This document shows positions 9,082 through 62,888 of a DNA stretch of 64,000 bases, piece by piece (the stretch's first letter is position 1; each line of letters starts with the position of its first letter). A program made the position numbers and the translations under genes. This DNA is from Octopus vulgaris (Eukaryota). The notes under the pieces are model-generated. The model was not told the DNA's origin and searched no databases. It saw nothing but the letters and a program-made list of their open reading frames with translations. The stretch spans positions 22,072,001 through 22,136,000 of the forward strand of contig OX597830.1 in assembly GCA_951406725.2 (NCBI GenBank), given 5' to 3'.

Positions 9082-9425
9082 TCACATGGATCCCATAATG
9101 TTGTAAACATTAAAGCGAGGCTGTTGCACACGTCCACCCATGTTGTTGCTACCACCATGTGTATTCATCATCATCATCCCACCTTGTGGTTGAGAGCTGC
9201 CAAACATGTTACCAGGTCTCTGTTTCTGCCCCATCCCACCACTGCTACTACTGGCAACAAATGCTCCAGTAGCATCTCGCCCTGTTGTGTTCATGGGGTT
9301 ACCAAGGCACCGGTCATTGGGTCGGATCATATCACTGTTCATGTTTCCATGCATGTGGGACCAGTTTTCCGCTTTCCTATCTACACTGCCAGACCCCCAA
9401 GAAGGTCTCTGCTCAGGCCCACCAC
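9082..9425 (-). CDS. SAFB: SAFB-A last coding exon, G/M-rich tail ending PRFNVYNIMGSM*
   Basis: tttag acceptor, phase 1; paralogous to 46873-47222. Confidence 0.88.
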
Positions 9426-12400
9426 CTAAAAGGAAGAAGACAAGAATTAAAAAAAAAAGAAAACATATTCTTTATTAAAACACAAATATGATAAAAGTTT
9501 TCAATAAATTCATTTTTTTCTAACAGAACAAGAGATACCTACAGAGAAGTGGGCTGATGAATGTAGAGACAGAGATATAGGGAAGAATAGGGTTCTGAGG
9601 ATGTAGTGAGTGATATATATATATATACAGATGAGAGCTGGAGAAATGAATAGGGAAGGAGACAACTAGAGAAAGGAAGACAGCTTCAGATAATATAGAC
9701 ATATAAGTGCAGGCGTGATTGTGTGGTAAGAAGCCTGCTTCCTAACCACATGGTTCTGAGTTCACTTCCACTGCATGGCACCTCGAGCAAGTGTCTTCTA
9801 CTATAGCCTCAGGCCAGCCAAAGCTTTGTCAGTGGATTTGGTAGACAGAAACTGAAAGAAGCCCATTGTATGTATATAAGTATATATGTCAGTGGATTTG
9901 GTAGACAGAAACTGAAAGAAGCCTGTTGTATGTATATAAGTATATATGTGTGTCTGTGTGTGTTTGTCATTGTGTCTGTTTGTCCCCCCCACTGCCACTT
10001 GACAACTGGTGTTGGTGTGTGTCTCCATAATTTAGCAGTTCAGCAAAAGAGACTGACAGAATAAGTACCAGGCTTAAAAAATAAGTATTGGGTTTGATTC
10101 ATTCGAAAAAGGTTAAGGCAGTGCCCCAGCATGGCCACAGTCTAGTGATCGAAACAAGTAAAAGATGAAAAAGATATCGTGAGAAAACAATGAAAATTTA
10201 CCAGAAGTTCTCATTCGACCCGATCTATTATGAGCTGGAATAATTTGTCTGTCGATATCTCTTCCTCGGTCAGGACCATTAAATCTTCTATCGAGTTCTC
10301 CACTTGGTCCCATATCTCTTCTGAACTCGTTGGGCATCCTGGAAATAAAGGTAAATCAGACACAACATGTTGAACAAGAGGCGCTTTGTTATTACGTATG
10401 CAACATGGTGTGTAAATCAACACCAACCTGCATTTGTAGTTAAAAGCAGCAGTAAAAAAATTTCGGGTTTCAATAAAGAGCAAAATTACCGATTGAGATG
10501 ATCATCTGTTAGAAACTGGTCATCAGGTCGTCTTTCACCACTACCTCGAAAATCTCGGAAAAGATCCATCTCCCTTCTCATCATTTCTCTTTCTTTATAT
10601 TCATTGAAACGGCCTCCAGTTTCTCTGCCCTCCCTTCTTTCAAAACGGTCCATTTGTCTTCCATAATCTGGTTCCTCAAGTTGTTCAAAGCTGAGAGAGA
10701 GAGAGAGAGATAAAAAAAATGGATGAAATAATATATAGCCTAAGGCAGTGCTCCAGCATGGTCATAGTCAAATGACTGAAAGAAGTAAATGAACACACAC
10801 ACACAATCATCATCATCATCATTATTACTCTTATTACTGTTATTTAACATCTATTTTCCATGTTTGTATGGGATACATGGTTTGACAAGATCTAGCGAGC
10901 TGCAAGGCTATGTCAAGCTACTATACCAGAATTGGCATGGTTTCCATAGCTGGATGCCCTTCCTAATGTCAACCACTCTGCAGAGTGTACTGGGTGCACT
11001 TTTCATGCCACTGGCACTAGTGAGGAAAGCTATGTAAACTTGAAGGACTGAAAAAAAAAGAAAGAGACAGCTCCCACTACTAAGAAGGAAGTGTTTGAAA
11101 GGGGAAGCAGAGTTGGGTAGCTTCATGCCAAGTGTTGAAAGGCTAAAGTATGACAGAGGACCAAGTACAGGCATCTTGCTATAAAAGGAGGTAAAATGAA
11201 GGTAATGATTTGGGCTAGGGCAAGGTACAAGAGGGTGAGCACAAGTGAGGATATGGACAGTGGGTCATAGGGGAGGAGGTGCGATTGGATACTTTCATAA
11301 GGGTGTGGGGAAAACAAAAGATAATTAAAGACAAAGATGAAGGTGAATATAGTAAGTAATGAACAAGGACAGAGGTGTGTTTGAAGACGAATACCAGTAT
11401 GAAGAGGGGCAAGATAAGAGATATGAGAGTGGCTCAAGAAGGGTATAAGACCAAAAAGTAGTGGGGTGATGTACAAGGTCTGAGGGTAGCAGAGTGGAAG
11501 AGGTTTAAAAATGGAGTATAGCAGCAGGAGAGAGCAGTAGTTGAAGGTATCGCATGGACGCGACTGGTGGAAATAATGTGGGCAGCGATTATGATGAGGA
11601 ATCGAAGTGGTTCAGGACGGGGGGGGGGGGTATAGAGAGGTGAACAGTTGTCAGTGAATAGAAGTGCCAATTCTGCTCTCAGATGATTATAGCAGCTTAG
11701 TAGAACCAAAGGTGAAGGAGTGATAGGTGTTAGGGGATGAGAATCAGGGGGATTCTTAAATTCTTGACATGTCATATAGAGAGGAGGTAAGGGCAGAGCC
11801 CTGTATAAACAAGTCATTTTAGGATACTATTTTTTTGCTGTAATGGATAGGTCTTCTAGAGCACAGTGAGACACCAATCATCTCATTTCTCTGTCATCTC
11901 CCCCTCAAGGCTCAGCATCTTGAGATCAAACTTCATTACTTCTTCCTTGGTCTTCCTGGGACTCACTCTTCCACAAGTTCCAGCACACTGACATTGCACA
12001 TCCAGAGCATACTAACCACATTCTTCGGATGTCCTCTGCATTCAAGGCCCATATCTCACTGACATGTGGCTTTGCTGTATGTACACAAGCATCATACAAT
12101 TTGCTTTTCACTTGGTGAGAGTGAACTTTTGTTGCCAACAAAGGTAATAGCTTTCATTCTAAACTTTTCTCTGTCTGTTCTTATTGTAGCCACTACTCTT
12201 TCAGAACATCCTCCTCCATTGCAAATTACATCACCTTGGTAACTGTTGTAACATAATTTGTTACATACAATAAATAAGATAACCAAACAACAGCAACAAC
12301 AATGTAATGAACTAACAAATCTCTTTACGAACCAATAATCAATATTCCTTATGAACTAATCAACTGACGCCACCCAACTTCACTCGACTCCAAACTCTGA

Positions 12401-15400
12401 ACATCTGATGAACTCACTCGGATTGTTACTATTTATATTTTACTCGGACCAGTCTATCTCTTGCAAGATGTCATAACTCTCAAAACAACAGCTCCCCTTT
12501 TGAGATTTCAACTAGTGAGAAAGTGGAATTAAAAATGTTTTTCCTTCCAGCACCTCTCTATCTTTTTTTTTTTTTTTAGCTGTTCTGCCTTAATTGTTGC
12601 CCGACTTTTAAGGTAGTATTGTTTGTTGCACATAGCACTTTTTCTTTACGTCTATACTAAACACTCGTTAGCACTCTTGTTTTTTTTTTTTATTTTTGAA
12701 AATTTAATATCTTTTTCATTTAGGTATTATTGCCAGATATTCAGCTTGTTTTTGCTTGCTAATTTTCACAATAACAACCTCATTTTTGTTTGTCCGCCCA
12801 TGATTTGCAATCTTGCTTAAAACTCTCCTTGTACCTTCTGTAGAACAATGCAAAAATTTATATCTTCCTCTGGGTTATAACTGAATTCATTAATCAAGTT
12901 TGAAACATCGTCTAGCGAAAATGAACTTACCTCATTTTGGGACTTTTTTTTAACATAGTTCCAATAATTGTTGTTGTAATAGTTGCTTCTGCAACTGTTG
13001 TTGCTGCTCTTCTACTTGCTTTTGCAACTGTACTATGGAAGCTAATAGGACTTCTATTATTTAACTAGTTGTATCACGAACAAATTGCTAAATAACCTTG
13101 TTGCCAGATGTCATAATGCAATTTGTTATGTACAATAAATAAGACAACCACACAACAGTAACAACAATGTAACAAACTAATAATCGATATTCCTTGTGAA
13201 CTAACCAACCGACTTCACTCGGACCAGTCTATCTCTTGCAAGTGACGTAATTCTCATCACAACAGTATCAGACCCTAGGAAGTCCCCAGAGCATTTAAGA
13301 GGATCAATTTGCTATTCATCCTTGATCTTTATGGCACATGAGCATCTTCCACATACAAACACTACTGTTGCTGTTAATCTTCCGATGATCCCACTGCACT
13401 TCATGGGTTTCCACAGTTAGTAAAGGGTACATTATAAGGATTTCCTGCCTACACCCTTCCTACATATTAAAGCAGGGCCATTTACATGATGTAAGTAGTT
13501 CTTGCTTACTCGAACCTTGGTCTTGCTAAGTTAACTTTAAGGCCCTTCAATTTCAGGTTTTGCTTCCATGCCTGGAATTTCTTTTCTAATTCTGTTGCAG
13601 ATTCTGTAGTGAGAGGGAAATCCTCAGCATATACTTGTTCACAGCGGTATCCGGTCTTGAATTTTTCTGTTATGGCCTGGAGAGCAGTGATGATTAGGAG
13701 GGAACTGAGCCCTGGTGAATGCCTACCTGTATGATAAACTGACCACTGTACTCACAACTAATTCTCACCTTACTGACAGCATCCCTGTAAATAGTTTTTA
13801 CTGGTTTCAAAAGCCATTCATCTACCTATAGCTTCCTCGGAGACTCCCATATCACAGACAGAGGGACTCTGTCAAAGGCTTTCTTTCTCCATGTCAACAA
13901 ATGCCAAGTACACCAGTTTACTCTTCGCTAAATACTTCTTGTACAGTTGTCTGAGAAGATAGCATCAGTAGTACTTCTCCCTAACACAAACCTAAACTGT
14001 ATTTCATCTAACCTGTTTCTAATTAATTGGGCTATAACACACTCTTTCTCTCTATATATCTCTCTGACTTTCATTACCTGGTTCAGCAATTTGACACCTC
14101 TGTAATTACTTCTCTCTAAGGCATCTCCTTAATATTTGTAGCAGCTAACTATAACGCTGCTACACTAGCCATTGGTGATGACAACTTCCTGAATAGCTTG
14201 ATTAATTATACAGGTGACTAGACCATAACCTACTCCAACAGATATTTTAAGCATCTCAGTGGTAATTCCCGATGGACTAAGGCTTTGCCCATCTCCACAT
14301 CCTTTATTGTTTTATCTATCATACTGCTGTCAACTTGGATAGCTGCTCCCTCAGTTGGGTTCAAACTGGGAAGACTCCCTTTCTCACATTTAATAGCCTT
14401 TCCTAGTAACACTTCCAAACCTCTTTCCTTACAAAGTCACTAAGTGCAAGCATACCATTTACCCATCTATACCCATTTATCACCCACAGCATCTCAGTTC
14501 TCTTTGATATCTTGTCCAGCAATTTGGAACACCTATCATTTCTGATCCTCATGTGAGACATTAGCAAATCTTTCTTTCTACTTCTGCTCTTGCTAGATAG
14601 ACCTGTCACCTACCTTCCCTGTCAGTCACCTCCATTTCCACTACTTTTAAATCTGTCTTTTCTCTTTTATGATCCTGTCTACTTCACTAATCCACCATCA
14701 TGTCACCCTTGGTCTGACAAGCTTTGTTCCAGTCACATATCACGTGTTGCCCTCATTAAATTATATACATAATAGAATTAGGTAATAATGACATTGTCTC
14801 CATCACCCATAACTTACCGAGATTCATTCTGGAATGGAGGTTCAAATCTAGGAAGGTTCCTGGAATTCATCATCCTGCGTCTTTTGGGTTCATCCCAGAG
14901 CTCTCCCTTACGTGGGTTCTTTCGATCTGGTGGTCTCTGCACAGAATGCGTCATTTCTTCCAGCCTATTTTAAACAACAAACAACACTACTGGGTCATTG
15001 TCTTGCTTCCTTCATTATGAGATCAAAAGATCAACATTACAATATCTTTTCGTACATTTGTTATTTCATACGTATGAATCTCATTTGAGGTTACTTTCCA
15101 CAATTAGGAAAAGGTCCTACATCCTAATCACCAATGCCACAAACAAAACAAACAAGAAATTATACAAACGGAAATCAAAAAACATTATCAGATTAAGTAA
15201 GTGATATCAAAGATTATCAGAAAAAAATAAAACAGACATTAAGTTGATATAGTAAGAGTAATATATCACAAACTGTCTCTTACCGCAACATTTCAGCACA
15301 GCGCATCTCTACACTACGTCTTTCCATTTTGAGAATTTCTTTTTCCATTCTGTATTTTAGTAGTTTTTCTTTCTCCAGCTTCATTTTCTCCAGCCTGAGA

Positions 15401-18400
15401 AGTATGAAAGAATATAAAGATATCAAGAATTTAAACAAAGAACAAAACAAAAATGAAAGTTTACACACACCAATCTGTAGCTACTCCGACATGCATTACT
15501 CAACAGAATATCCAAGAGACTGCTAGAAATCTTAAATCATAGAACATCTTCATTCAAAAATCTTAAAGAATATATGTATTAGATAAGATGGTTCTATAGA
15601 TAGCCATAAAAACAGGATGGTCACAGTTGGAATACTTTTGATCATGATAACTAAAAAACATAGAGAACAGTTCACCACAATAATAATCAAGGAGCTGTAT
15701 GTCTGACAAATATTTTGTTTAATTTCTGCTGCTAAGCTGAATTCTCCTTTAGGTTTCAAAAGAACAGTGAGGAAAGCTACTCCAAATATACAATATTCTC
15801 TTCATCTCTATACAGAATCAAAAGTTTTCAATGGTCTGCAACAAACTCATTGGATTAATGGATCTCATGAGTAAATATGTCACTCAATACATCTTACATA
15901 TTCTGATCATTTTCTTCTCCTTGAATATCTTCCTTCTTTCAACATACACTTAAAATGACACATCCCCTGCTCTTGTGATGAATTTCCTAATTCCCCATAA
16001 GCCACAGTTTCTATCTAAAAGATCTTTGAAATATCTTTAGAGTTGCACCAGAAGAGAAGAGTAGTATTTAAAGTGCTTTCTCAGTGTGTCCAAGACTATT
16101 AGAAGGAGGGAAGAACTTATTTTTAGATCAGAGACCCATCATGAAAGTGAAAGAGTGTGTACTCTGTTAAAAGCCTCCAAGAACCAGATGTGGAGTTAAA
16201 CCAGGTGACGGAAGTATTCTGTCACAAAAACTGGAGTAGTCCCTCAGACAAGGTTTAATGTTTCTATCTAAGAAATTTCACTGACAAAGCATTGGTCAAC
16301 CTGAGCTTATGATACAAGACACTTGCCTGATGTGCTGCACAGTGACAGTGAACCTGAAATCATGTCGTTGTTAAATAAATTTAACCATACAATGATGGAA
16401 TCCAACATTAAGCAATTATGATTTCAGTGGAATTTCAACGAACCTTAACTGCTCCCGCATAATGTCCAATCTTATGGCCTCCTCTTGCTGTTGTTTTTCC
16501 ACATCCTTCTGAAGCTTTAAAGCTAATCCAAGATTTTGTGACCGACGTTTCTCCTGTGCTTTCGGGCCCTTTTTTCTCCAGCGTGCAGTCTTCTGTCGTT
16601 TCTCCTGAAGTTTGTTGGAAATTTTCATTTTCTTTTGAAAAAAATGGAAAATGAAATGAGAATAACTTTCAAGTACCAAAAATAAAACATAATGTACAAA
16701 AGAAAATATAAAACAACTGATCCTACAGGACAATATCTTACAAAGGCATGAAATATGTTAAGTCTAGAATCAAACATCACAATGAATCAGACATCCCAGA
16801 TTCATCATCGAGCGGTTGGCATTAGGAAGGGCATCCAGCTGTAGAAACTGCCAGATCAGATTGGAGCCTGGTGCAGCCATCTGGCTCGCCAGTCCTCAGT
16901 CAAATCATCCATGGAAAGCAGACGTTAAACAATGATGATGAGATTAATATAGCATAATATTGCTTTCAAATTTTGGCACTAGGCTAGCTATTTCATGGAA
17001 GGGGCTAAGTCAATTAAATCAACCCCAGTGCTCAACTTTTACTTATCAACCCTGAGAGGAAGAATAGTAAAGTTGACCCCAGCAGCAATTGAACCCAGTA
17101 TTTTGCCTGGGGTGCTAACAATTCTGCCAGCTCATTACCCTAGATTGATTAATATAACAATATTAACATAACACTATAAAACATCCCATAGATTATAGCT
17201 ATTCAGTATAATACTGAATACCACTCCATAATATCATAATATCTCTTGATAAAGAACAAAAGAATTTTTCCTTAGGGCTGTCAGTCATTCTTTTGTCTTA
17301 ATTCATTTTCCATACTAGAATAAGACTTGCGTTCTCCTCCTCCTGTTAATCATTCAAGACGTAGAAGCAAAACAGACAAAGCATGGAAAGTTGACTTATT
17401 TGTAGTGTTTCAGGTGAAAGATCAGAAGCTCCTTCATACATGCACATCAACATCAGCACTATTTTCTGGCTGGAACCATTTCAACTTTTGCACACATGCA
17501 CAGCAGAACCAGAAGGAAGTCAAGAAAGATAATAATTTTAAGTAATATGGCAAATATACTTCACGATGTGTTGCAGCTACTGTTTATAACTAGCTCTCAG
17601 ATTTATTATTGCTTGTTTACACTTTTTCGATATCGGTGTCTTTACGTCACTGGAAAAAGGATATATATTTGCAAAGGGAACCAAAATTTTCATCGACAAC
17701 TGTGATTGTCACACGCTGCTGACGGGTCAACACCCAGAAACAAGTCCGTGTGTATCATAGGTTGAAGACGGGAAGGATGGCTTCCCTTTGCAAATACTGA
17801 TAGGGCACTGAAAGTGTGCCTATAGCCAGCTGGAGGAGGTGTCCTCCTGGAGCAACAAGCTACAGTAGCATCCACCCTTAGGGGTTAGCCATATTTGAAT
17901 GGCAAATATACTTCATAATACTAAGATAAATATTCATAAACACACATTTTTTAATGTGCCATCACATAACATCCTCTATGAGCAGTTTACCATCAGGCAA
18001 CAACTTACTGTACCTCTGTCAACTCATGTCCAAAGGTCTTTCCAATACCACCAGGTTCAAACTTACATCAAGCAATTATAATTCCACAGCAATCATACAT
18101 AATAAACTATTCTCCTTAATGGTAAACTCAACCTATATTCATAATGAATAGGAATAGCTAACAGAATAATCAACTAGAAAGTACCGGAAACTAATGAGAT
18201 TCAATATTTTCAAAAGAAGAATAGTGTGATTTTTCTGACTTTTAAACTCCACCTTTGAGAGTGCTTATTTACAATCTTTACTTTTACACTACATTCCAAT
18301 CAGTTTGAGCTTTGACTATCCTAAAAAAAAAAAAATATTCTTGAATGTACATATCTACCTACATCCACTTCTTTAAATAGCTAGCCACATATATATCTCA

Positions 18401-21400
18401 ATCTCCTGCAACAAGTGACAATGCAAAAACACACACACACACACACTTTAATAGCCAACCATCTATATAACTACAGTTACTTAACACAACTTCACTCAAA
18501 AGTTGATGTACATCTATGTCAAGAAGTGACCTTTCTGCATCCCAATAGTAACACTTCCATATTCTGTCTCTCATATCCACACACATACACACACAACCTT
18601 CTCTCTGTCCCTACACCACCTGTTCCTATTTCCCAATGGAAATATGTTTTACTTCTTTCACTTTTGTCCCTACAACTTGAACTCACACTCCCCACAATTG
18701 AATCTATTAAGAGGAGAAAAGGAACAAACAAAGCTGATCACATATTCTTAATTCAATGGCTGACCATTTGGTTTATAAACAAAACAATGAATTCAGGATG
18801 TCTCACCCTTTCAACTGTTAATTTCATACCATTCACATGAGATTTATTCAACCACATTATACATTGCAAAGCTTCGGCCTCAGTAGACATAGTAACAAAA
18901 GCATGACATCGAGTACCAGATTTCCGTGATCGTGTAATCATTTGGCAATCCGCCACCTAAGAGAGAATAAAGAGTCAAAATTTTATGCATGAAAAATTCA
19001 GTATGTACTCAGCTTCATAGTCAACACCAACAGTATCATCCCCAATAGTAGTCCATCGGTCTCAAGAGGCCGTGGATCTGTGCCCAAAGAAATCATGTCA
19101 GCTGCTGATGGTTGTGCAGCGTCTGTTGTGGCTGTACAGACCCACACAGGAGTGGTAGTCATGCATGCTGAGACTACATCTGAAGGCGCTCTCTGCTGGT
19201 GTTGCTGATTTTTCATCCCCTCTCTTCATTCCCTTTTGCAACCTCCTCCTATCTCAGGACGTCCAGATCAAGCAACTTCATATCTCTCTTACAGACGTCT
19301 TTGAAATGAAGATGAGGTCCTCCTCATACTATTGTGCTGGTAACCAATTTCCCGTACAGGTCTTTTGGGATCCTTTCGTCTGGCATGTGATGAACATGAC
19401 CGAACCAGCTCAAACGACACTGCTGGAGCAAGAGGTGTATGCTGGGTATCTTGGCTCGGTTGAAGACTTCGGCGTTGGTGATGTGGTCAGTCCACTTGAT
19501 GTCCAAGATGCCTCTTTAATTGCGAAGGTGAAAGACGATGAGACGCCGCTCCTGTCTAGGGTAGAAGCTCCACGTCTCACTGCCATAAAGTAGCATACTT
19601 TATAGATAACAATTTGGGTGTTTGCAGCCAGATTTTTGTTTTCCAAGACTCTCTTTCTGAGCCTGGCAAATGTGGAAGATGCTTGTCCAATTTACCTGTT
19701 GATCTCAGGGTCCAGGGAGAGGTCATCAGCAATGGTAGAGCTGAGATAGGTAAATTGATGGACTACCTCGAGCTTGTAGTTGTTGATGATGATGGTGGGA
19801 GCATGCTTGACCTATTACTTGGGTCTTCTTCAGACTGACAGTCAGGCTCAATTTATGACAGGCCTTCGAGAGTTTATCCATGAGGTGTTGTGTTTGCTCT
19901 TCAGAGAGTGCTGCTGCATCGTAAGCAAACAGCATACCCTAGCGCACCCTGGATTTTGCTTTCAGCCTCAACAGACTGCCACTTGACCTGGGATGGAGGT
20001 AAACACCAGCAATTGATGTCCCAAATTCATGTTTCAGCATGACTACAAAGAAAATGTCAAATATTGTGGGGGACCAAATGACCCTCACCTTTCATTCTTT
20101 CTTTTTCTCTCTGTCTCTATTTTTTTTTTCATAGGTGCCAGATGTCAGGCCTTTGGCAACTAAACCGACAACACCATAGAGCTTGTTCTGGGAGGGTGTT
20201 TTTTCTTGCTATTTGGTCACCCTGCGGGAATAAATACAAGACCTGTCAAAAGGCAAATGGACTCTCAAGAGCCAATGGCCATCCAAATAAGCAATTATCT
20301 TTACAAGTTATACTGCTTATTAAGCCCTTATCTGCTTAAGACAGCAGCAATAAATAATGACTCCACTGCCTTGCAGCAATACCAACTTAAAGGAAAGGCT
20401 CCAGGAGTAAACCCTGAGGATAAACCAGGTGCCAGAGTCCCTAAGGCAGCTCGATGTTGTAGATAACCTTGTTCTGGCAACTCCTGCAACCGCACTGGTG
20501 CTAAGCCGTATTGGCCCCTGCCCTTCCCTTGGATAACACTGGTGGTGGTGGAGAGAGGAGACATGTCGCCAATCTCCCACGAAAAACTGCCCATCTAACC
20601 ATGGCAGCAAAACACAGAATTTGAACTCAGAACATAAAGACAATGGAATACCAAGTATTTTGCCCAGCATGCTAACATTTCTGCCAGCACGCCTCCTTCC
20701 CCAATAACAATATATCAATTCTAAATTGTCATAAGAATGATGCTGTAGATTTTAAGTAAAACTCACTTCAGGAAGCAGGAGAAGGAAATAGCCGAGATTA
20801 CCATATTTGATGGCATAAAAGACACATGGACATATTGGATGTGCCTCAATTTCAGCAGTAATACCCACAAGAGAAAGTTTTTAGTGCATTGAAGTAATAC
20901 AAGCCCAATATTGCATACAGGACTAAGGGTGACTATTTGAAATATTTCTCTAAAATGCATTTTATATACCATCAAATGCAGTAATTTTTGTTCTAGTGAT
21001 TTGAACCCAAGGAAAGGGCGGTATCTATGGTGTTAAGAGGCTCCGAGACAGCTGCAATAAAAGAATTGCAGGAAGCCAACATTCTGAGGAAAAAGGGACT
21101 GAGAATAGAGATTAGTGTGGAGTATGGGGTTAGGTTTAGAAACAAGCGAGTAAGGGCTGTTCAATTGGAAGTGACACAACACAAGCTAGCACCAAAGAAC
21201 AAGTTTTGCTCAAGTAACTAACTGTTGCAAAAGCAAAGAGAGAAGCCAACATATCTTTCGATTAGAGGTTGGAGAGTACTGGCAAGAAAATCAGATGATT
21301 TTGGGGGAGGAGTTAGAGTATATTCTGTCTCTACAGTGGAAATCCAGTCTTTGTGATTACAGGCGTTGCTATGTTGAATTTATGCGTTCACTGAGGCTAA

Positions 21401-23886: not shown

Positions 23887-23932
<46 letters not shown>

Positions 23933-36858: not shown

Positions 36859-37046
36859 TCTACTCTTTTACTTGTTTTTCAGTCATTTGACTGTGGCCAT
36901 GATGGAGCACTGCCTTTAGTTGAGCAAATCGACCCCGGGACTTATTCTATCGGTCTCTTTTGCCGAACTGCTAAGTGACAGGGACGCAAACACACCAGCA
37001 TCAGTTGTCAAGCAATGCTAGGGGGACAAACACAGACACACAAACA

Positions 37047-37085
<39 letters not shown>

Positions 37086-45814: not shown

Positions 45815-46250
45815 AGCATTAATATCCTGCATGTAAGGAAAAGCCACTGCAGGTGTTCTATTTGAGATGATTGTCAGAGTTTGTTTGAACTGACTAGAGA
45901 ACAACTTTACCCATGATGTGAATGTTACCTCAGGAAGCCTCCAAGGTATTATTGAAAGCCTCAAACGCAAGACTGAGACATTATGCATTCATACTTCCAG
46001 CTAGGCCTGCTTGTCCAAACCCTCTGCCAATATTGCATACAGGACTGTCAGTGTGTGCAGGGTTGAGTGGCAGCTCATAGCTGAAAAAGACAGGTCTTGC
46101 AACCTGTGAACAAAGATGTGGCAATTCTGGATGAGGCCACCACAGGAGGAATCTGTTTGAGTAGGTGAATAAACTTATTGTGAAAATTAAGTTGATAACA
46201 AAAACGAACATTTTGACTTCCACTAGAAGCTTCAAGGAAAACAAACAGTG
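45815..46250 (-). mobile_element. Fragment of the same CR1/L2-like LINE
   Basis: Sequence shared with 20760-22170 and 61300-61960. Confidence 0.45.
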
Positions 46251-46394
46251 ACATGTTGAAACAGAGAAAGAGGAAAGATGAAAAAATGATAGAGCAAAGG
46301 CATAGGAGGTAAAGAAAAAATATAGAAAGAAATAAAGACATGAATATATACAGAATAAATAAAATACTTTGCAATTGTTTTATAGTGAATAAAA

Positions 46395-46872: not shown

Positions 46873-47222
46873 TCACATAGATCCCATAATACTGTAAGCA
46901 TCAAAACGAGGTTCTTGCATACGTCCACTCGTATTACTACCACTACCACCTCCACCACCACGTGTAACCATCATGATCCCACTATGTGACTGAGAGTTGC
47001 CAAATGTGTTACCAGATCCCAAGTTCTGCCCCATCCCACCACTATTACCGGGTCTGCTATTGTCTACAAATGCCCCACTGGCATCACGCCCCGTTTTCTC
47101 CATGGGGTCACCAAGCCATGGTTCACTGGGTTGGTCCATGTCTCCATGCATGTGGGACCAGTTGTCCACTTTCCTATCTACACTGCCAGAACCCCAAGAA
47201 GATCTCTGGTCTGGTCCACCAC
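46873..47222 (-). CDS. SAFB: SAFB-B last coding exon, G-rich tail ending [12 protein letters not shown]
   Basis: ctttcag acceptor; ORF 46873-47169. Confidence 0.9.
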
Positions 47223-53000: not shown

Positions 53001-53031
<31 letters not shown>

Positions 53032-53075
53032 GATATATATGTATCTATATATATATATGCATAAATGGATGTATC

Positions 53076-53125
<50 letters not shown>

Positions 53126-56100
53126 TAAATGTGCCATGATAGATCACTAGCCACTACACATTCTTTATTTTCTTTTCTCTCCTTGTTCCTTTCTGTGGAA
53201 GAGCGTAGTCACTGAAGCCATTCATACATACATACATAACCTCTCTCACATACACACACACCTGCAACATTACTCTGTGTCTCTTCACACACACTAACAA
53301 AAGAACTTCACATACAAACCACACTTTCTGTCTCACACACCCCATCAAACACACACACACATACAGCATGCCAACTTGAAAAGAACTTCCCTGATCCAAT
53401 TGCGCTCTCTCAGTCCCTTGCTTTCATGCCGACATCAAAAGATCCCCTTTCCCCTCACCCCACATATGTAAAAAAATAAAAAGTGACAATCTTCTTCAGA
53501 AACAAGCAAATACACGTGCTTTAAAAAGTCACAAACACAGTTCTCATATCAAAAGATCGCCTAGTTTCCACTTATGAAAGCATTGGTCAACCCAAGACTA
53601 TGTCAGAAAACACCCATCCAAAATGATTCACAATGACACTGAATTTGATATTATGGAGGTGTGAAGGAAACTTCTTACCCACACAATCATGCAGTTCTGT
53701 CTTAAGCAGTTTCAATGTGAATGCACTTTTAACAAACCTTATCTTCTCTCTAACACTGTCCAATCTTATGGCCTCCTTCTTCAGTTTCTGTAACAGTAAC
53801 AACATAATCTGTCTCACTTACCGTAACATCTCAGCTGAATGCATCTCTACATCACGCCTTTTTATTTCAAGAAGTTCTTTTTCCATTTTGTATCTTAACA
53901 GTTTCTCTTTTTCCAGTTTCATTTTTTCCAATTTCATTTTCTCTAATCTGAAAAGTGCGAAAGAATATAAAGACAACAGAGAATTTCAACAGAAAATAAA
54001 AAAGAAATATCCCTGCCTACACACACCAACTTGACACCTGTTACTCTGCAAGAATACCCAAGAGACATTCTTCTGAATGTAGGGGAAATTACGTATTTAT
54101 CCAAATGTCACTTCATGGACCTTAAATATTAGGAAGGGCAGATGTAGTTGAGTAATCTATACAGAAACCACAAAGGTAAGCAGAAGAAAGCAAAGTCAGG
54201 TGGACAAAATAATAAAAGCATCAGGCTGCTAAACAATAGGCTAACATCACTGTAAGCTGGACAAAGACATTTTAGTCGTAAACATTTATGAATCACTTAA
54301 TAAGTACCATGTGCAGCTATCATATAACATCCTCTCATTTTAAAACACAAAATACATAGATAATATAGTCCTATAGATAACAAAGAAATTGGAGGGGGGA
54401 GTTACAGTTGTAAGGCCTTTGATCACAGGCCTGCAAGATAGCTAAACAACAACTCAAAAGTAAGGTTACTAAGGGGGAACTGTTTGTCTGACAATCATTT
54501 CTTTAACTTTCACTGCTATGTTCAATTCTTCCTTTGGTTTTGAAAGGGTATTGAGGAAAGCTACTCCAAATATTTCAGCCTCTCTTTATCCCAAAATTAC
54601 AATGGTGTCCAACTAATCCATTGGGTTATCAGATCTTAAAACTAAAGATATCAAGCAATTTGAACAAAGAGTATAAATATATCACTGAATTCATCTTATT
54701 TATTGTGATCTTTAATTTCCTTCTCATATATTCATTAACATTTTTACCATTCATTTCTGTCCACTTTGCCGGGTGGTTAGTGTTAGGAAGGGCATCCAGC
54801 TGTAAAATATGTGCCAAAACAGACACAAACATCTGGTGCAGGCTCCTACCTGGCCATCCAATCTATGCTAGTGTGAAAGGCAGATGTTAAGTAATGATGA
54901 TGATGATAATGATAATTTAATGACTTTGCTCTCTTTTTGCTAAAATTTCCAAATTCCTCCTAATCCACAATTACTATGTAAAAAACTATTCAAAACATAA
55001 AAATACTTAAGTTTTTAAAATATAGCAATATTTAAAGAGTTTTCTCAGTGTTGCCAAGACCAATTTGAAGAAAGGAAGAAGTTATCCTCAGATTAGAGAC
55101 CAGGCCTGAATGTTTGATAAAGCGTGTACTCTGTTAAAGGCACCTAAGGATCAGATGTAGTCTTAAACAAGACAACAAAATAATTCTACCACCAAAAATA
55201 GGATTGAGCCTTCAGACAGCTTTTAACATAGTTTCCATCTATGAAAGCATTGGCTAACCTAAGACTATGGAAGGAAATACCTGTCCAATATGATGCAGAA
55301 TGACCCTGAATTTGGTATCATGGAGGTGTGAAGTAAACTTCTTTCTCACAAAATCATGCTGTTCTGCCTTAAACAGTTTAAATGTGAATGCACTTTTAAC
55401 AAACCTTATGTTCTCTCTAACTTTTCCCAATCTTTTCGCCTCCTCCTTCTGTTTCCATACCACATCCTGCTGACGCATACGAGCCAGGCCAAGATTTTTC
55501 AACCGACGCTTATCCTGTACCCTACGATTTTTTTGTCTCTGACGTGAACGCTGTCTTTCTCTTTCCTTTGTCAAGAAATTTGGTTGGGATTTTTTTTTTT
55601 CATGAATGGAATGTGAAAAGAGAATAATTATTAGCAAAGAATAAAACAAACATAAAATCAACAAAGAAAACATCTTAAAAGTAAATGACCATACAAAATA
55701 AGACTTGATATGATACAAAGAGTCAGTGACATATAATATGGCAAATAGAAAAACCACAATAATTTAATACAAACATCTCAGATTTTAGCAGTTCTGAATA
55801 GCACTAAAAGCTGCTACACTGACATCATAATACCCTTATATCCTGATATAAAAAGGAAAATCTCTCATTTTACATAATTTTTCCCCACAAGATTAGGAGC
55901 TACATTTCCCTCCTCTTGCTAAGCATTCAACCATGAAGTAAATTCGAATAAATTTTATCAGTTGAGCAAACTTGAGTAAGTACAATTATATAATTTATTA
56001 CACCAAATAGGACACAATATTACAGATGTAGAAAGATTTGAACTTCTACTCTTGTTGCCAGTAGTCCAGTGTCTTACACCCACAGTCACAGTGCCTCTAT

Positions 56101-59100
56101 TCTAATGAAATAATTGACCTTCTTCCACCTAATCTGATTTGAAATTTCTTTACATATTCTATACTGCAACAGCCACCACAATTACTATCACAACTATTGT
56201 GACTATTGCAGAGTCACATCTGAATCAATCAGCATAATTTAAACAAATTCTTTAGGTTACATCTCAGGCGTGCTACACACTAAGACCTTCACTGGAAGAC
56301 AATGCATTTCAAAGCTAACACACCAGTTATGACCAGTTTTAAGGCAGGGGAGCTCTATCTCAAGATTTCAAGATGATATCAGGGATAATACACTCTAAAT
56401 TTAGGATCAAGTAAGGGTATTAGCCACTCTAGTTTCAAGGTGAAATTATTTATCTTATTCTATTTCAACTACATACTTTAGCCACATTAAAAACACATAC
56501 ATAAAATCGTACTTACTTTTATTTCATCAAATGATAAAATCTCTTTCTTGACAGAAGGGTCACCAGGCCCTCGTGGTTTAGGCTTTGTTGTACTGGGAGC
56601 TTTCTCTTTGGAGCCTGCTGCTGCTGCAGGCTCTGCACTTTTCTCAGAGCCTTCTTTTGTAGCTGGTTCAGCTGTACTCTTATTTGGTGTAGTTGCATGA
56701 GATTTATCTGAAACAGTGAATCAGTTATCACCATCATTTAATGTCCATATTCTTCCTGTAGCCAATTCTCACCCATTTTCAAGCAAGGTGATATTTCCCA
56801 TGACCACACAAATTTTTCAGAGATAACTTAAAACCAACAAATTAATCTGTCTGATGGCAATGCTTCTTTACAACCATCCTGTGACATCAAGACAATGGTA
56901 TAACATACACATGTAAATACATACACTTCTTTCAGTTTCCATCTACCAAATCCACTCACAAGGCTTAGGGCATCTCAGGGCTAAAGTAGAAGACACTAGC
57001 CCAAGGTACCATGCATAATTACAAAGCCACACTGGCAACGAAAATCCACCAATAACTGTATTTCTATAAATCTTGCCATTCTAAACCAGCACAAATCTGG
57101 AATTAATTCCAGTACCATATTCTCTTCAGAACAAGGTACTCTTGTACAAAGACAAAACACACACACACACGCGACTTTTAGTAAAATTGACCTGAGCTTT
57201 TGTATAACAACAAAACACACACAAACACATGCGACCTTTAGTAAGACTGACCTGAGCTTTTGTGACGACTTCTGCTGCTCCTGCTCGTATGTCTTTTGTC
57301 ATCTCTTCTGCTGGACGTTCTCCTGCTTTTATCATCTTTCTTTGATTCTCTCTTCTCAACTTTCTTATCACCATCTTTTTTTTCTGCAAACAGCACAAAC
57401 ACACATAGAAACACTACCACAATCTGGAGACTTCAAGGCAATATAGAGTTGCCTATAAGTGTCAACTAATCATCATCACAGTTTTTAATGTCCACTTTTT
57501 CCATGATTGCATGGAGAACAGGAAATTAGTTGAGGCAGATTTTGCTATGGACAGATGCACTTCCTATCATGAACCCTCATCTGGTTCCAAGTACAATAAT
57601 ATACTCTAATGACCAGGCATGTTTTCATGGAAGATTGGAAACACAGCAAACTGTTTACATCATAGCAACAATTCTTTACAGCTATCACAAAAAGTCAAGG
57701 CAAGGAGACAGCAACATACACACAGGCACACCCAAACACACGGATATGTCTATATGTGTACAACAGACTTCTTTCAGTTTTTGCCTACCAAATCCAATTA
57801 TGGGGCTAAGGTCAGCCTGGAACTATAGTAGGAAACACTCGCCTAAGGTACCACACAGTGGGACTGAAGCTAAAGCCGTGTGGTTAGGAAGCAAACTTCT
57901 TACCACACAGTCACACCTGATATTTATGATTCTTTGAATACTATTACTACTGTTAAGTAATTGTGAAATGCCAATGGTTTTATTAAACTAATTACTTTGT
58001 TAGTAACATGAAACACTAAGTTCAGCTAACTTCAATGCAAATGACCCGTAGAGTCTCTGCATTGGAATTCTAGAGCCAAATTCTGTTTAGGGTACAAATA
58101 TGAAACACTGGAAGAAGTCATACCATCTTTCTTCACTTCAGGCTTTTCTACTTTTTTTTCTCCTGATTTTGTTACTGGTGCTTTAGTGTTAGGTTCTCTT
58201 CTAGCCTAAAAAAAACAGGAAATATTACTTATGACACCTTTATTAACGATGTATTTGTACTACCTTCAAACACGTACATACATTCAACAGTTTATCATCA
58301 TACATCTCTCTACCAATAGATTATTACTGATATCATTGCACGTTATACATTCACACACACATCATAACCATGACCATCATCAGTCTAGCAGTTAAGATAT
58401 TCAGGTTGGAGAAGAAAGCAGTGAAACTTCTTTACATCATACATAGCAGGGATAATACAATCCATAAGCTTAAATGGGAGTTCAAGGGCTTGAGATAGCT
58501 CAAAAAGGCAAGAGGGGAGGAAACGAGACCTCTCAGTAAAAGTTCATGGCCCTTAGAGCTGAATAGCAAAGGAGACAATGGACAAGGAAGCAAGCTACTT
58601 TTCAAGCAAACACATGTGGGTTTACAAAATAGTTGCTGGGGCAAGGGTCAAATCACTTGCTCCAGAAGCACGATCGAGTCATATGAGAGTTACTTTAAGA
58701 AGTAAGTTCAGGGACCATGACATAAGCCACTTAAAGCCCTTGAGCAATCCATCTTCACCAGCTCTGGAATTTGACAACAAAGGACCAAGTTAGAAAGAGG
58801 TCTAGGAAATGGTTAAGAAGGTAAAGGGCAGGTTAAGCCCCAGAAGATGATCAATACCTTCCAAAGAATTCAGTAAAGCCCTGAAGGTAATATGGAAGAA
58901 GATTGGGGTAGCTCATCAGTGGTAGTGTGAAGAAGGGGTGTTGAAAGGACGTTATTCTTCTGCACTGTTGCTAGTCACCTGTCAAATTACTTCCACTGGA
59001 ACTTCTATGCGGATACTTCAGTTCTTAAAAGACATCAGTGTGTCTGGAGCATTCCAGTATGGTTAATTAGTTGATCAGAGAAACCTTCAACAACAAGAGA

Positions 59101-62100
59101 CCTGGTAGTATTGTGGCTGGACCTTACAAATGTCTATGGGTTTTTACTCTATAAGATGATTGAAGAGGCTTTATACAGGCACCATGTTCTACACAAATTA
59201 AAAGACATCATTCTGAATTACTGCCACAACAGCTTTAGTCTCTGTCAGCTTTACAATATCAGAGTGGCACAAACACAACAAGTGTACTGTAACTAAAAAT
59301 ACCATTTCAGTGATCCTTAACACACATGCTATGAAAATACTAAGCTGGTTGATGTATAGTGTACAGGACTGCTCACCAACACTGGTGTCTAATAGGTTCC
59401 CATTAAGGACATACTGACTATGAAACAAAATTTGTCATGAAATACCAGGAGGATCCTGAAGGGCTTTGATGAACTGATGGCCTGGGTTTGCGAGTTGAAC
59501 AACAGATATTTTTCTCAATAACTGACCATAATTGATGATCTCACCCTTACTCTAAAGATGACCGATATCTATTTCAAATGCTGAGCATGTTTCTAACAGC
59601 TGACAATGAAATGCTGATAACATTTAATTCAGTAGCTGATAATTGGGATTGTAAGCAAAATAATGAACTTTGGATAACTCACCCTTTCAACTGATATCAT
59701 ACGGCCATGCAGTTCAGTCTGATTCAAATGTTGAATACATTTAGAAGCTTCATGTGAAGAAGACATAGTTACAAAACCATAACATCGAGCACCAGGGCTT
59801 CGTGCATTTGTCACTACTTTGGCACCAACAACCTGATGTAGACAAAAACAAAAACTAAATTAAATTTTAAACACAAAAATTTACATGGGTAATTATTCAG
59901 CCCAATACTCATCAATATTACCAATACTAATAAATTATTTCTGAAAATAGGTGCAGGAGTGGCTGTGTGGTAAGTAGCTTGCTTACCAACCACATGGTTC
60001 AGGGTTCAGTCCCACTGCATGGCACCTTGGGCAAGTGTCTTCTACTACAGCCTCGGGCCGACCAAAGCCTTGTGAGTGGATCTGGTAGACGGAAACTGAA
60101 AGAAGCCCGTCGTATATATGTATGTGTATGTATATGTTTGTGTGTCCGTCCCCCACCAATATCGCTTGACAACTGATGCTGGTGTGTTTACATCCCTGTA
60201 AGTTAGCGGTTCAGCAAAAGAGACCGATAGAATAAGTACTAGGCTTACAAAGAATAAGTCCTGGGGCCAATTTGACCGACTGAAGGCAGTGCTCCAGCAT
60301 GGCCACAGTCAAAATGACTGAAACACGTAAAAGAGTAAAAGAGAATGATATTGCAGATTAAAAGTAGTAAATGTTTTATATAGAGTTTAAGTAAAACTCT
60401 TTACATAAAGGATTTTTAAAAATTAGTTTGGTCAGTGTGCATGGTCCCTTCCAAATTCTCTAAGACCATGAAAATCTATCAGTGATATTCTGCTTGAATA
60501 GTTGCAAATGTCATCTGCCAGAAAAGGATTCTAGAAAGCTAACATTCTGGGAAAAAGAACTAAGAACAGGGGGTTATTATAGGCTTTAAAGTAGAGTGTA
60601 CACACAATGTCACTAACAAAATAAAAGAGAATCAAGCATCACAAAGTGGGGGTGGCACAGGACAAGCCAGTTCCAAGGAACAGACTCCAATGCAGAAGGC
60701 ATAGATAAGGGAAGAGAGAAAAGACAGCAGGTCCGTCAACTGGAAGCCTGAGTATGTTGACAAAAGTCTTTATACCATTCAGTTGAGTGCCATTTCACTT
60801 GGATGTGGTTTATGAATAGCAACAGCACTGACACAGATGTGAGAGGAGTACACTAAAGAATGTTTCACCTGAGCTATGTAGAAGGCTAACAGCTGAAGTA
60901 TTTCCTGGTCCTAAAGAAGACAGAATTTGTGATTAAGTCCTTGCTCTTTTGAGGATATGGATTTACCAAGAGAGATCCTTAGCCAGAGCAAGGCCTAATA
61001 TTTGGAAGGAACACTCTACAGTCCAGTTGCTGCATGTGCTTCATATTCAGAAACCAGAGTGGAAGTGGAGAGTGTCTGTTGAACGTGTCAAAACTGACAC
61101 ACCTTTGTTGAAGAATGTTTCCAAGAAGTCAGGGCAGGTTTGGCATATGGTGAATGTGGATGACATTTGGAGTAAATGATCAGGGATGATTGAAAAGTAT
61201 CATCTACGTAAGGGTGGTGGGTATTGTTGGAGGTGACTGAAAAAAGGTCATTGATGTATAGACAGAGGGCAAAACTGAACCATGAAGCAAACCAGAAGTT
61301 AATGGAATGTAAGTCTGAGAGAGCTATAGACATGTACATACTGAAGCTCTAGTCACCTTGACAGGAAGCCTCCAATCCAAGAACCCACAGGCAGTTAGAT
61401 TTACTCAGAGATTTAGGGCACATAAATCACAGTTAAATGCTTTGCAACATTGTTTTCTTCAAGTATTTTTCCAAGAATAAAAGCTTACCAACCTACTGAT
61501 GAGTGAAGAAGAACATGTCTCCAGTAGATTGGCTTTATATAAGCAGTAGTGGAGGTCATCAAGGGGAGAGATGGATTCTGAGTGTTAGAGAAGGTTATTT
61601 ATGACTATCATCTCTGACAAATTGAAAGTGAGTGCAATAAGATGATAGTTGGAGTAATTTCCGGCAACTGGGACATATTGTAACAAGAATCCAAAGATAG
61701 GGATATGTGGAGTCAAATTGAAGAGTTTGGTGAGGATAGGGTTAGCTACAGATTCATGGCTAAAGGCATTATTGTTTTGAGGTGATTGGGAGAGATTTTG
61801 CATTTAGCATGTATGTGGTGGAGGAGGGAAAAACACAAGTTTTGAGAGATTTACTTAGGGTATGCAATGCAGAGATGGATACAAAGTAAACAATCCCTGT
61901 AGAGGCTTCCTGCTCAAGTGTATTGGTTGCGGAACCAGAGAAGTGGAAGGGAGAAGGATTTTGCAAAGATGACTCAAATCAGTTTTGAAAACAAACAAGA
62001 TCAGAAGTTGCTTTTGGAAATGAGAAAGCTTACCAGTTGTACCATACATGGCAGAATCCTTTGCATTTCAGATAGTTTTGCAGATTTTATGTTACATGAA

Positions 62101-62888
62101 AGCTGCCTTGTTTGTAAGAGTGCTTTTTCTCTAAGTATTTCAGGCTGTATGCTTTGCATGAAATGCTGCAACACAGCTAAGACTGAACCACTTAGAGAAC
62201 CTGAGACAATACTTTTGGTTTTGCATGGGATATAAAGGGACATGCCAAAGAGTATGTTTTCTGTCACCTGCCTAGCTGTCTCTGATGGGTCCAGATTCAA
62301 GCATGTATGTCAAAGAAAATAGTGTAGAACTGGTGGAGTTCTAACCAATCTGCTATAAACTAAAGTGCCAAAGAGTTCAAGTGAGCAGGGAAGGTATGTC
62401 AAGCAGTACATGGATATGTTGTGGACAACCACACACAAAGCAGAGAGTGGTGGTGGTTTGACAGTGGCTACATTTGGAGAAGAGAAAGTTGTTTAGAGTG
62501 TAAACACACACTAGACTAGTATAAATAGTGTGAATATAAGTACTAATTAGTAATAAATATGATTAGTAAAAAATTACATGAAATAGAAGAAACAAATTTT
62601 ATTCAACATACCTTGCCATATTTGGTAAAAAGCACTTTAAGGTCTGTAGCACGGGTACTTGTGGCAAGACCACTGACCCACAGATTTCGATTACTTTGGT
62701 CATTGCCTATTAAGTACAGAAATAAACTAATATGAAAAGATTACCAGGAAACCAGACCCTGTAAGATTAAAATTTCAAATACCTCACATTTAAAACAAAA
62801 GCTTAGTGAATAAGATTCAGAACATGTAGAATAATAAAAAAACTTACTTCTCATATTCTTGATAACTTTGGGTTTAGAAGCTGAAGAA
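46873..62888 (-). CDS. SAFB: SAFB/SLTM-family protein, paralog B (canonical RRM); 5'-partial, upstream exons lie outside the window
   Basis: Exons 62848-62888, 62612-62706, 59683-59832, 58124-58205, 57252-57383, 56517-56707, 55405-55565, 53822-53947, 51154-51261, 49480-49623, 48187-48372, 47682-47821, 46873-47222, all phase-compatible [53 protein letters not shown] closely matches the vertebrate SAFB RRM as I recall it. Confidence 0.92.
47682..47821 (-). CDS. SAFB: SAFB-B exon ([14 protein letters not shown]...VRNSF)
   Basis: tccag / G|gtaagc. Confidence 0.87.
48187..48372 (-). CDS. SAFB: SAFB-B R/D/E-rich exon
   Basis: Within ORF 48183-48413; tttcag / CG|gtaatt. Confidence 0.87.
48541..48765 (+). 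mobile_element. SINE family B with 20-bp TSD
   Basis: TSD ggtataacaatttcagagaa at 48521-48540 and 48766-48785; other copies at 6561-6790(+), 8335-8525(-), 16965-17135(-), 35095-35306(-). Confidence 0.85.
49480..49623 (-). CDS. SAFB: SAFB-B exon ([27 protein letters not shown]...FQNESR)
   Basis: atcag / CG|gtaagt; phase 2 to 2. Confidence 0.87.
50850..51101. mobile_element. Old degenerate hairpin MITE
   Basis: Imperfect inverted arms of about 95 bp (tgtaaatattgggtt / aacccaatatttaca; aaaggctgc / gcagccttt). Confidence 0.55.
51154..51261 (-). CDS. SAFB: SAFB-B coiled-coil exon, duplicate 2 ([15 protein letters not shown]...DVEMR)
   Basis: tttttcag / CG|gtaagt, symmetric phase 2 to 2. Confidence 0.78.
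51900..52265 (-). mobile_element. SINE family C with (gat)n tail
   Basis: catcatcat..gcgtccgctttccatgctagcatgggttggac; copies at 1-190, 16810-16940, 34783-35082, 45176-45326, 50300-50522. Confidence 0.75.
52715..53561. mobile_element. Decayed Merlin-like foldback MITE
   Basis: TSD tagtttct / tagtttcc; right end aaagatcgcc matches the 40818 family TIR; empty site at about 55229 in the duplicated unit. Confidence 0.75.
53738..53787 (-). CDS. SAFB: SAFB-B candidate alternative mini-exon made by duplication ([17 protein letters not shown])
   Basis: Copy of the 3' third of exon 55405-55565, with a junction-created ttacag acceptor and a retained AG|gtttgt donor; use unproven. Confidence 0.35.
53822..53947 (-). 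CDS. SAFB: SAFB-B coiled-coil exon, duplicate 1 ([15 protein letters not shown]...SAEMLR)
   Basis: ttttcag / CG|gtaagt, symmetric phase 2 to 2. Confidence 0.78.
55405..55565 (-). CDS. SAFB: SAFB-B coiled-coil exon ([10 protein letters not shown]...KVRENIR)
   Basis: 161 nt, phase 0 to 2. Confidence 0.85.
56517..56707 (-). CDS. SAFB: SAFB-B exon (DKSHATT...[11 protein letters not shown])
   Basis: tttcag acceptor, AAA|gtaagt donor; ILSFDEIK resembles the SAFB-family SFDKVK motif. Confidence 0.85.
57252..57383 (-). CDS. SAFB: SAFB-B K/R/S-rich exon (EKKDGDKK...SRSRHKSS)
   Basis: tttgcag acceptor, CAG|gtcagt donor, phase 1 to 1. Confidence 0.82.
58124..58205 (-). CDS. SAFB: SAFB-B exon ([27 protein letters not shown])
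   Basis: tttttag acceptor, G|gtatga donor, phase 0 to 1. Confidence 0.82.
58380..59480 (+). mobile_element. Decayed non-LTR retrotransposon of the RLE (Hero/NeSL/R2-like) group
   Basis: [25 protein letters not shown] matches the WLDLANAYGSVPH RT motif. Confidence 0.55.
59683..59832 (-). CDS. SAFB: SAFB-B RRM exon b ([50 protein letters not shown])
   Basis: Canonical SAFB RNP1 RCYGFVTM; catcag / AGG|gtgagt splice sites. Confidence 0.95.
59949..60343 (+). mobile_element. SINE family A, full length
   Basis: Consensus match. Confidence 0.85.
60660..62480 (-). mobile_element. Decayed CR1/L2-like LINE
   Basis: RT core relic ...LCLYINDLF...HPYVDDTF in ORF 61088-61339. Confidence 0.65.
62612..62706 (-). 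CDS. SAFB: SAFB-B RRM exon a ([27 protein letters not shown])
   Basis: Canonical SAFB RNP2 and helix 1; aatag / AAG|gtatgt splice sites. Confidence 0.95.
62848..62888 (-). CDS. SAFB: SAFB-B exon ([13 protein letters not shown])
   Basis: ttgcag acceptor, gtaagt donor, phase 2 to 1. Confidence 0.8.

Follow-up and report, generated by a model that had tools for sequence, protein, structure and literature searches.

The 64,000-nucleotide stretch of Octopus vulgaris DNA considered here (contig OX597830.1, forward-strand positions 22,072,001 to 22,136,000; hereafter the window) carries two neighbouring genes of the SAFB family. We call them A and B; these letters, like C to G used below for further copies, are labels of this analysis. 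The gene models are based on a self-comparison of the window, in which 6871-24804 matches 46361-63985 collinearly, followed by a reading of the minus strand and by exon models. An earlier, sequence-only reading had described two minus-strand SAFB genes lying head-to-tail, and the exon models, together with matches to named O. vulgaris proteins, bear this out.

Gene A runs on the minus strand from 42026 to 9082 in 17 exons, with GT-AG at all modelled junctions and no internal stop. With the RNA-supported acceptor at 16631, its complete coding sequence (9082..42026) specifies 825 amino acids and differs from CAI9735049.1 by a single residue, a matter of splice-site choice between exons 5 and 6. 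Exons 1 to 4 (high to low coordinates, minus strand) lie at 42026-41892 (encoding the SAP domain), 38013-37953, 36300-36275 and 35455-35404; exons 5 to 8 at 33047-33012 (or 33016), 31329 (or 31333)-31091, 30696-30663 and 25772-25286; exons 9 to 12 at 22918-22884, 22729-22635, 18956-18807 and 16631-16444; and exons 13 to 17 at 15394-15284, 14964-14818, 10690-10490, 10338-10202 and 9425-9082. The SAP domain scores 38.2 bits against PF02037 (cut-off 23.9). Judged by eye from translations, introns of A at 13500-14420, 19160-19940 and 26940-28000 hold broken open reading frame (ORF) pieces that resemble reverse-transcriptase or transposase remnants.

Gene B is cut by the window edge, its SAP domain and first 393 amino acids lying beyond 64000. 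The part inside (46873..62888, minus strand) comprises 13 exons and 634 codons without stops, and its 634 amino acids are 100% identical to residues 394-1027 of O. vulgaris CAI9735051.1, the full-length record of which carries a SAP domain (PF02037, 38.9 bits, cut-off 23.9). The first seven of these exons are at 62888-62848, 62706-62612, 59832-59683, 58205-58124, 57383-57252, 56707-56517 and 55565-55405, and the last six at 53947-53822, 51261-51154, 49623-49480, 48372-48187, 47821-47682 and 47222-46873.

All nine of A's exons 9 to 17 have a B homologue in identical phase. Introns and untranslated regions (UTRs), which had been called alignable, are indeed 72-86% identical over aligned columns, and both reading frames are intact as claimed, over the whole of A and over the 634 residues of B in the window. 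The claim of matching exon phases stands for exons 9 to 17; the exon sets differ, since three B exons lack an A homologue and one B coil exon is doubled. The three exons, starting at 58205, 57383 and 56707, total 405 nucleotides and encode the linker between RRM and coil; they have no recognisable counterpart in A, where neither blastn nor tblastx found a remnant of them. Their place is taken in A by an intron (16632..18806, minus strand), with the RRM exon joined straight to the coil exon. In B, an internal segmental duplication (51123..55455, minus strand) has left the coil exon twice, at 53947-53822 and 51261-51154. It also doubles an intron (77% identity over 1174 aligned columns) and repeats part of the exon that precedes the coil exon, at about 53790-53735; the duplication is found as well in O. 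bimaculoides XP_014784460.2.

The AATAAA signals of B (46445 and 46400) and the ATG of A (42026) leave a gap of about 4.4 kb. At least 54% of the sequence that separates A's start codon from the 3' end of B (42027..46340) matches repeats elsewhere in the window, versus 37% for the window as a whole, in agreement with the earlier description of a spacer of about 4 kb consisting mostly of transposable elements (TEs). Within it, just upstream of A's start, lies a near-palindromic block with inverted copies of about 130 bp (42827-43568), and the repeat flanking this block recurs at 3145-3692, 5597-5870 and 40508-41158.

Gene A is transcribed and spliced. Its last exon and proximal 3' UTR were found in 20 of the 24 listed sequencing runs, none of which is recorded as RNA. 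Contigs of four runs (X1, X2, X18 and X20) were compared with 7540-23880, which covers exons 9 to 17. Those of X2, X1 and X18, from three studies, join at the modelled exon ends with GT-AG signatures. Seven of the eight junctions among exons 9 to 17 are among the joints listed, in all three of these RNA-like runs, and for the eighth the contig coordinates fit, leaving the expected 262 letters. The joint 16631/18807, which brings the RRM exon onto the coil exon, occurs in all three; X20, a run of the size expected for DNA (3828 million letters, about 76% read), contains neither this nor any other of A's joints. Because the joints are present in three RNA-like runs and absent from X20, splicing of A and the loss of the linker exons are real, and the sequence-only reading's worry that A might not be transcribed falls away. 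Contig depth cannot rank A's expression by level or tissue. A retrocopy was also considered for A and rejected, as introns are present and X20 holds no joints.

The RRM of A, encoded by two exons (18807..22729, minus strand) and identified by its RRM_1 match and predicted fold, has been remodelled. It passes PF00076 (RRM_1) with 37.3 bits (cut-off 20.7). Its RNP2 reads LWVSGF and its RNP1 RCHAFVTM; with RNP positions following the general RRM consensus, W378, R416 and F420 are kept, while RNP1 carries the changes Y418H and G419A. The domain is changed at 22 of the 45 positions that are invariant across 13 canonical RRMs. AlphaFold2 predicts the order beta-alpha-beta-beta-alpha-beta with a predicted local distance difference test (pLDDT) score of 78-95 for the block, and structure comparison matches the predicted fold to solved RRMs; no solved SAFB RRM is among the PDB sequence matches. 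The mean pLDDT of the whole protein is 52.7, most of it being low-confidence, and A is predicted to fold as a SAP domain, a long disordered region, an intact RRM and then a 100-residue helix. This helix (457-556) is predicted to begin about 6 residues past the RRM. From the RRM to a common downstream anchor there are 47 residues in A versus 163-266 in canonical copies.

In human SAFB2, RNA is bound at the RNP motifs (PMC9958909). Since the base-stacking RNP residues are kept, we infer that A still binds RNA, and since half of the surrounding invariant positions have changed, it would bind other sequences or bind with another affinity. The coil has been altered too. Its 60-residue core contains 2 ER/RE dipeptides in A, 1 in B, 1-2 across B, D and E, and 9 in C; counts of 9-15 are found in C, Argonauta 388, cuttlefish 081 (both introduced below) and three other molluscs. 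The ER-rich repeat that SAFB proteins carry behind the RRM is thus missing from A and B, where the homologous region is EK/M-rich. Because that region is present but recoded, both are filed as SAFB variants. One conserved and one fast-evolving copy had been claimed, and this is right for the RRM: that of B is identical at 62 of 76 positions to catshark SAFB1 (62-63 of 76 over catshark and abalone), that of A at 35 of 76 to abalone. It does not extend to the rest of the proteins, since the C-termini are 92% (B) and 91% (A) identical to their O. bimaculoides counterparts and neither copy has the ER repeat. In part of exon 8 it is A that keeps a cuttlefish-like state, whereas B and C have a common derived one. 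Behind the RRM, the A branch is the longer in the tree (0.45 versus about 0.17).

A and B are likely to be adjacent members of a six- to seven-copy octopus SAFB array. Copies were searched for with the two RRM exons and copy C, supplemented by protein-cluster look-ups. One sequence of O. sinensis holds six distinguishable 3' halves: A (XP_029646790), B (XP_036366416-22), C (XP_029646860), D (XP_036366415), E (XP_036366411) and F (XP_036366413). One sequence of O. bimaculoides holds pieces or models of A to F plus a far more diverged G (XP_014784467), seven copies in all, and in O. vulgaris A, B, C, D and E are among CAI9735048-56. Argonauta hians has three models, GAB1609388, 389 and 392, of which 388 and 392, at 97% identity, may represent either a recent duplicate or haplotypes. 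The cuttlefish Sepia pharaonis has two or more copies: CAE1316075/76, and CAE1316081 on a sequence of equal length. The SAFB records within each species share one sequence length, so that further copies lie with A and B on one sequence in all three Octopus species. Accessions that run consecutively (CAI9735048-56, XP_036366408-428) suggest the tandem order beyond A and B. With C, F, G and Argonauta 389 as queries, no further SAFB pieces were found in the window. The picture of a simple pair with one ancestral copy therefore has to be given up: the array is larger, and A and B both belong to a derived clade apart from C. Copy G has lost its RNP aromatics, has no SAP domain in the model, and carries internal repeats and a 10-residue tail repeat; it is probably dead for RNA binding.

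Several further observations were made on these records. Cuttlefish CAE1316081.1 has two tandem RRM units, the first more diverged, through internal duplication or the merging of two genes. O. vulgaris CAI9735052.1 fuses a DUF7041-containing gag-like ORF to C, as an annotation artefact or a real chimeric transcript; in O. sinensis this ORF is a separate 320-residue gene. The A copies of O. sinensis and O. vulgaris differ at 12 N-terminal positions, and at 9 of these O. sinensis A agrees with O. sinensis F; conversion between A and F or a change specific to O. vulgaris are both possible. The planthopper Lycorma delicatula has two SAFB-like loci on one sequence, and the snail Bulinus truncatus two SAFB models on different sequences. 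Duplication of SAFB in invertebrates is thus not limited to cephalopods.

The RRMs of B, C, D and E are nearly identical (72 of 76 positions between B and C), and in the disordered block at the 3' end of exon 8 B, C and E share 97-100% identity, against 50-77% to Argonauta. Such uniformity would be expected if B, D and E supplied more canonical-RRM SAFB to a genome whose introns are long and laden with TEs, A and F having weakened RNA binding and acting as modulators or competitors through SAP and coil. The second half of this proposal finds some encouragement in human SAFB2, whose coil and RE region act without the RRM in microRNA cluster assistance (bioRxiv 10.1101/858647), and in the conservation of SAP in A. 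Yet A keeps W378, R416, F420 and a confidently predicted RRM fold, as expected if RNA binding is still selected, and B, D and E lack the ER repeat (1-2 dipeptides versus 9 in C), which makes them something other than plain extra doses of C. Taken jointly, dosage and decoy appear to us an unlikely account of the array.

The history of the copies was examined in two trees. From the RRM tree nine rows were dropped (near-duplicates and three arthropods); the post-RRM tree, with one coil-exon copy per gene, leaves out G, Bulinus, the short O. bimaculoides A piece and two near-duplicates; and the approximately unbiased (AU) topology tests were run after dropping seven further near-duplicates or fragments. 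A and B nest among cephalopod SAFBs in both trees, as descendants of a SAFB gene should. In the RRM tree the cephalopods form their own clade apart from vertebrates (support 96/90), on which ground a duplication common to vertebrates was rejected. The sequence-only reading was therefore correct in proposing an independent origin from vertebrate SAFB1/SAFB2, and the bilaterian-wide duplication that it had named as an alternative finds no place in the gene trees. Behind the RRM there is an octopod clade (99/99), within which C groups with Argonauta 388/392 (99/97), and A, B, D, E and F with Argonauta 389 (96/99). A single clade of all Octopus copies is rejected (p-AU 0.010), as is a single clade of all Argonauta copies (p-AU 0.021). 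Because both are rejected, these trees place the first duplication before the Argonauta-Octopus split; the candidate scheme in which all Octopus duplications are younger than that split falls with the first of these tests. The cuttlefish copies lie outside the octopod clade, and their duplication therefore looks independent. Argonauta 389 has A's recoded coil and six derived RRM residues in common with A, and this RRM likeness may be convergent. B was also considered as the ancestral copy and rejected, since it belongs to the derived clade, with its ER coil recoded and one coil exon doubled; it is C that is Argonauta-like.

In synonymous distance, A and B stand 0.50 apart in the RRM and 0.71 apart in the region that follows; for most introns the distance is about 0.3. 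On a scale on which a Jukes-Cantor distance of 0.2 corresponds to 56 million years (My) per lineage (PMC13282606), arithmetic would date the A-B split to roughly 45-100 My, before the O. bimaculoides split, which has been put at 34 My (10.1101/2023.05.16.540928) or 13.3-33.5 My (PMC13282606). Gene B has a mosaic make-up. In exons 2-7 (36 versus 8 sites) and in the coil exon (13 versus 4) it agrees with A, but over the stretch that runs from exon 8 to the end of the RRM it agrees with C (72 versus 8); MaxChi gives 63, reached in none of 100 permutations, and a cuttlefish-polarised Fisher test gives p=0.0005. Gene conversion is the likely cause; it may have run in either direction, because the A-B DNA distance is no larger in the RRM region.

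Constraint on A differs between its parts. Between A and B, the ratio of nonsynonymous to synonymous substitution rates (dN/dS) is 0.86 (0.52-1.54) in the RRM and 0.35 (0.24-0.46) behind it. Since 39 of the 41 informative RRM sites changed on the A side, simple arithmetic suggests a dN/dS near 1.6 (about 1.0-2.9) for the A branch in this domain. The recent record is different: 75 of 76 RRM residues of A are identical between O. vulgaris and O. sinensis, and this comparison, over an interval of only about 2.5 My, gives no sign of recurrent positive selection at A's RRM. Among the differences listed (at least eight) between X18 and the A coding sequence, seven are synonymous and one is a replacement; for one in eight the binomial p is 0.00016 against an assumed replacement share of 78%. 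To judge from these comparisons, A went through rapid change in the past, chiefly in its RRM, and looks constrained today. A pseudogene was accordingly set aside among the candidates, the frame being intact, spliced and constrained.

The RRM dN/dS near 1 and the lost RNP aromatics of G would also be expected if the locus were simply prone to duplication and rich in repeats, its copies being born, drifting without distinct function and dying. High local repeat density, exon gains and losses and a transposon in A's UTR (see below) point the same way. This neutral account is nevertheless quite improbable in our view: A's frame has stayed intact over 17 exons despite an A-B synonymous distance of 0.5-0.7, the post-RRM dN/dS is 0.35 with seven of the eight listed differences synonymous, and counterparts of A to F persist in O. 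bimaculoides.

The concentration of changes in the RRM also invites a host-transposon arms race, in which A and F would be pattern receptors tracking octopod transposon families with RNA beyond the reach of the canonical SAFB motif. This carries the conflict suggested by the sequence-only reading over to the whole array. Binding of purine-rich RNA and suppression of TE exonisation by SAFB are known in human, mouse and fly, and suppression of retrotransposition is reported with them (PMC10901741); 66% of the O. vulgaris genome is repeats, with 1298 recently active families (PMC13282606). The link of A and B to transposons would rest on this role in other animals and on this repeat load. Differences persist among F-type RRMs (63 of 76 identical), while that of E is identical at 76 of 76 positions between O. 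vulgaris and O. bimaculoides, and cuttlefish and argonaut appear to have had separate duplications. On the other side stand the near-identity of A's RRM in O. vulgaris and O. sinensis and the mostly synonymous listed coding differences, albeit over about 2.5 My, and the fact that tandem arrays are common in coleoid genomes (PMC9068888). We hold an arms race to be possible but doubtful.

The explanation we favour, with modest confidence, is an array shaped by conversion in which A has shifted RNA targets and B keeps the ancestral recognition. Unequal crossing-over in a repeat-rich region would have built the array, and gene conversion would have kept part of it uniform. The A/F lineage would have rebuilt its RRM surface and lost the linker, and would then have been fixed by selection after the burst. 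A would be a nuclear RNA-processing regulator with shifted RNA targets, B retaining ancestral RNA recognition; among the copies, C would fill the ancestral role, B, D and E would combine a canonical RRM with a recoded coil, A and F would be specificity-shifted, and G probably RNA-binding-dead.

A number of points weigh against this explanation. The interval for the A branch reaches 1, so that relaxed constraint explains the burst equally well, and the X18 variant counts cover the listed differences only. The RNA-like status of X1, X2 and X18 comes from their splice joints, not from run labels. Argonauta 389 is a long branch whose RRM joins A/F at only 55/68, and an alternative placement is not rejected (p-AU 0.32). 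As for the mosaic, the A-B synonymous distance in the RRM is not above that behind it, and this speaks against an older lineage as the source of B's RRM block; part of the pattern can also be imitated by uneven rates. The copy number beyond A and B is deduced from protein records, and annotations merge E with F in O. sinensis and D with E in O. vulgaris as isoforms of single loci, so that part of the supposed copies may instead be alternative 3' modules or products of read-through. The O. vulgaris records retrieved include neither F nor G, nor CAI9735050.

The two genes carry further features. A's 3' UTR is split by a broken DNA transposon, probably of the Tc1/mariner type (7213..8854), with inverted arms at 7213-7529 and 8569-8854. 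The arms are identical at 253 of 317 positions and their duplex is predicted at -339 kcal/mol, versus -72 for 30 shuffles. A weak match to Mos1 (22 amino acids, E=0.039) lies in a frame broken by stops, and no Pfam transposase was matched in the element. Both halves of A's 3' UTR around it match the single B UTR, the distal half lying at 6871..7170 (minus strand) with AATAAA at 6952 and 6907. RNA-like contigs cover parts of the element at a depth like that of A's exons, and none bridges it. In or beside the right arm, A>G changes on A's strand cluster within 8567..8833, at 8567, 8813, 8825, 8830 and 8832. All five (read as T>C) are present in the three RNA-like runs and absent from X20; three are in UAG and four are predicted to be paired. 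T>C accounts for 28 of the 77 places in the RNA-like runs versus 16 of the 87 in X20 (p=0.013, the sites not being independent). The cluster is likely to reflect adenosine-to-inosine editing by ADAR; in squid such editing is common where repeats lie in 3' UTRs (PMC9068888).

The intron that separates exons 8 and 9 of A holds a non-coding block (24068..24804, minus strand; strong CAG/GTAAGC donor after 24123) that is conserved in B up to the window edge (63231..63985, minus strand; same donor after 63284). The two are 86% identical over 723 columns, above other introns (p=1e-9). Every candidate acceptor leads to an in-frame stop, six of six in A and seven of seven in B, and Rfam has no match in the window, this block included. 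It may be a poison exon with an autoregulatory role, or a converted tract.

The octopus proteins share with the SAFB family (human SAFB1, SAFB2 and SLTM, Drosophila Saf-B) an N-terminal SAP domain, a central RRM, a long predicted helix and a low-complexity tail. They depart from it in the RRM of A, which joins the coil without a linker, in the EK/M-rich coil that A and B have in place of the ER repeat, and in number, with probably six or seven octopus copies against the single orthologue stated for invertebrates (PMC10901741). Like the mammalian SAFB1/SAFB2 pair, A and B are adjacent paralogues of one family; the mammalian genes are head-to-head, however, whereas the octopus genes are head-to-tail and belong to a separate cephalopod clade. 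Other coleoid arrays, such as the protocadherin and C2H2 ZNF genes and, with possible conversion, the reflectin and tyrosinase clusters of argonauts, have likewise expanded in tandem on a single chromosome within one lineage and show signs of conversion (PMC9068888, PMC9795677, PMC9635652). The SAFB array differs from these in its small size and in the nature of the gene, a nuclear RNA-processing factor that is normally single-copy, and its remodelling is domain-specific.

That both genes are annotated as SAFB and that tandem arrays are common in octopus was already known. Literature searches found no published description of an octopus SAFB array; preprint supplements and subscription journals may list the expansion. 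Term searches of the main texts of 10.1101/2023.05.16.540928, PMC9635652, PMC12682272, PMC13282606, PMC9068888 and PMC9795677 turned up neither SAFB nor scaffold attachment, and the same holds for the examined supplements of PMC9068888, PMC13218726 and PMC9795677. The diversified octopod array is thus apparently undescribed.

SAFB has been described as a non-adaptive, pattern-guided somatic suppressor of transposon RNA (PMC10901741). A bolder proposal, which we regard as rather unlikely, is that coleoids turned it into a diversified receptor repertoire: through repeated and in part independent expansions in octopus, argonaut and cuttlefish, A, F and Argonauta 389 would have gained new RRM specificities and would see lineage-specific transposon RNAs, while conversion would hold the other copies on the ancestral motif. 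The copies C, B, A and G would offer a natural series for mapping the RRM and coil residues that set SAFB specificity, and an array of this kind in a genome that is two-thirds repeats would be a direct test of whether RNA-level surveillance of TEs diversifies with TE load.

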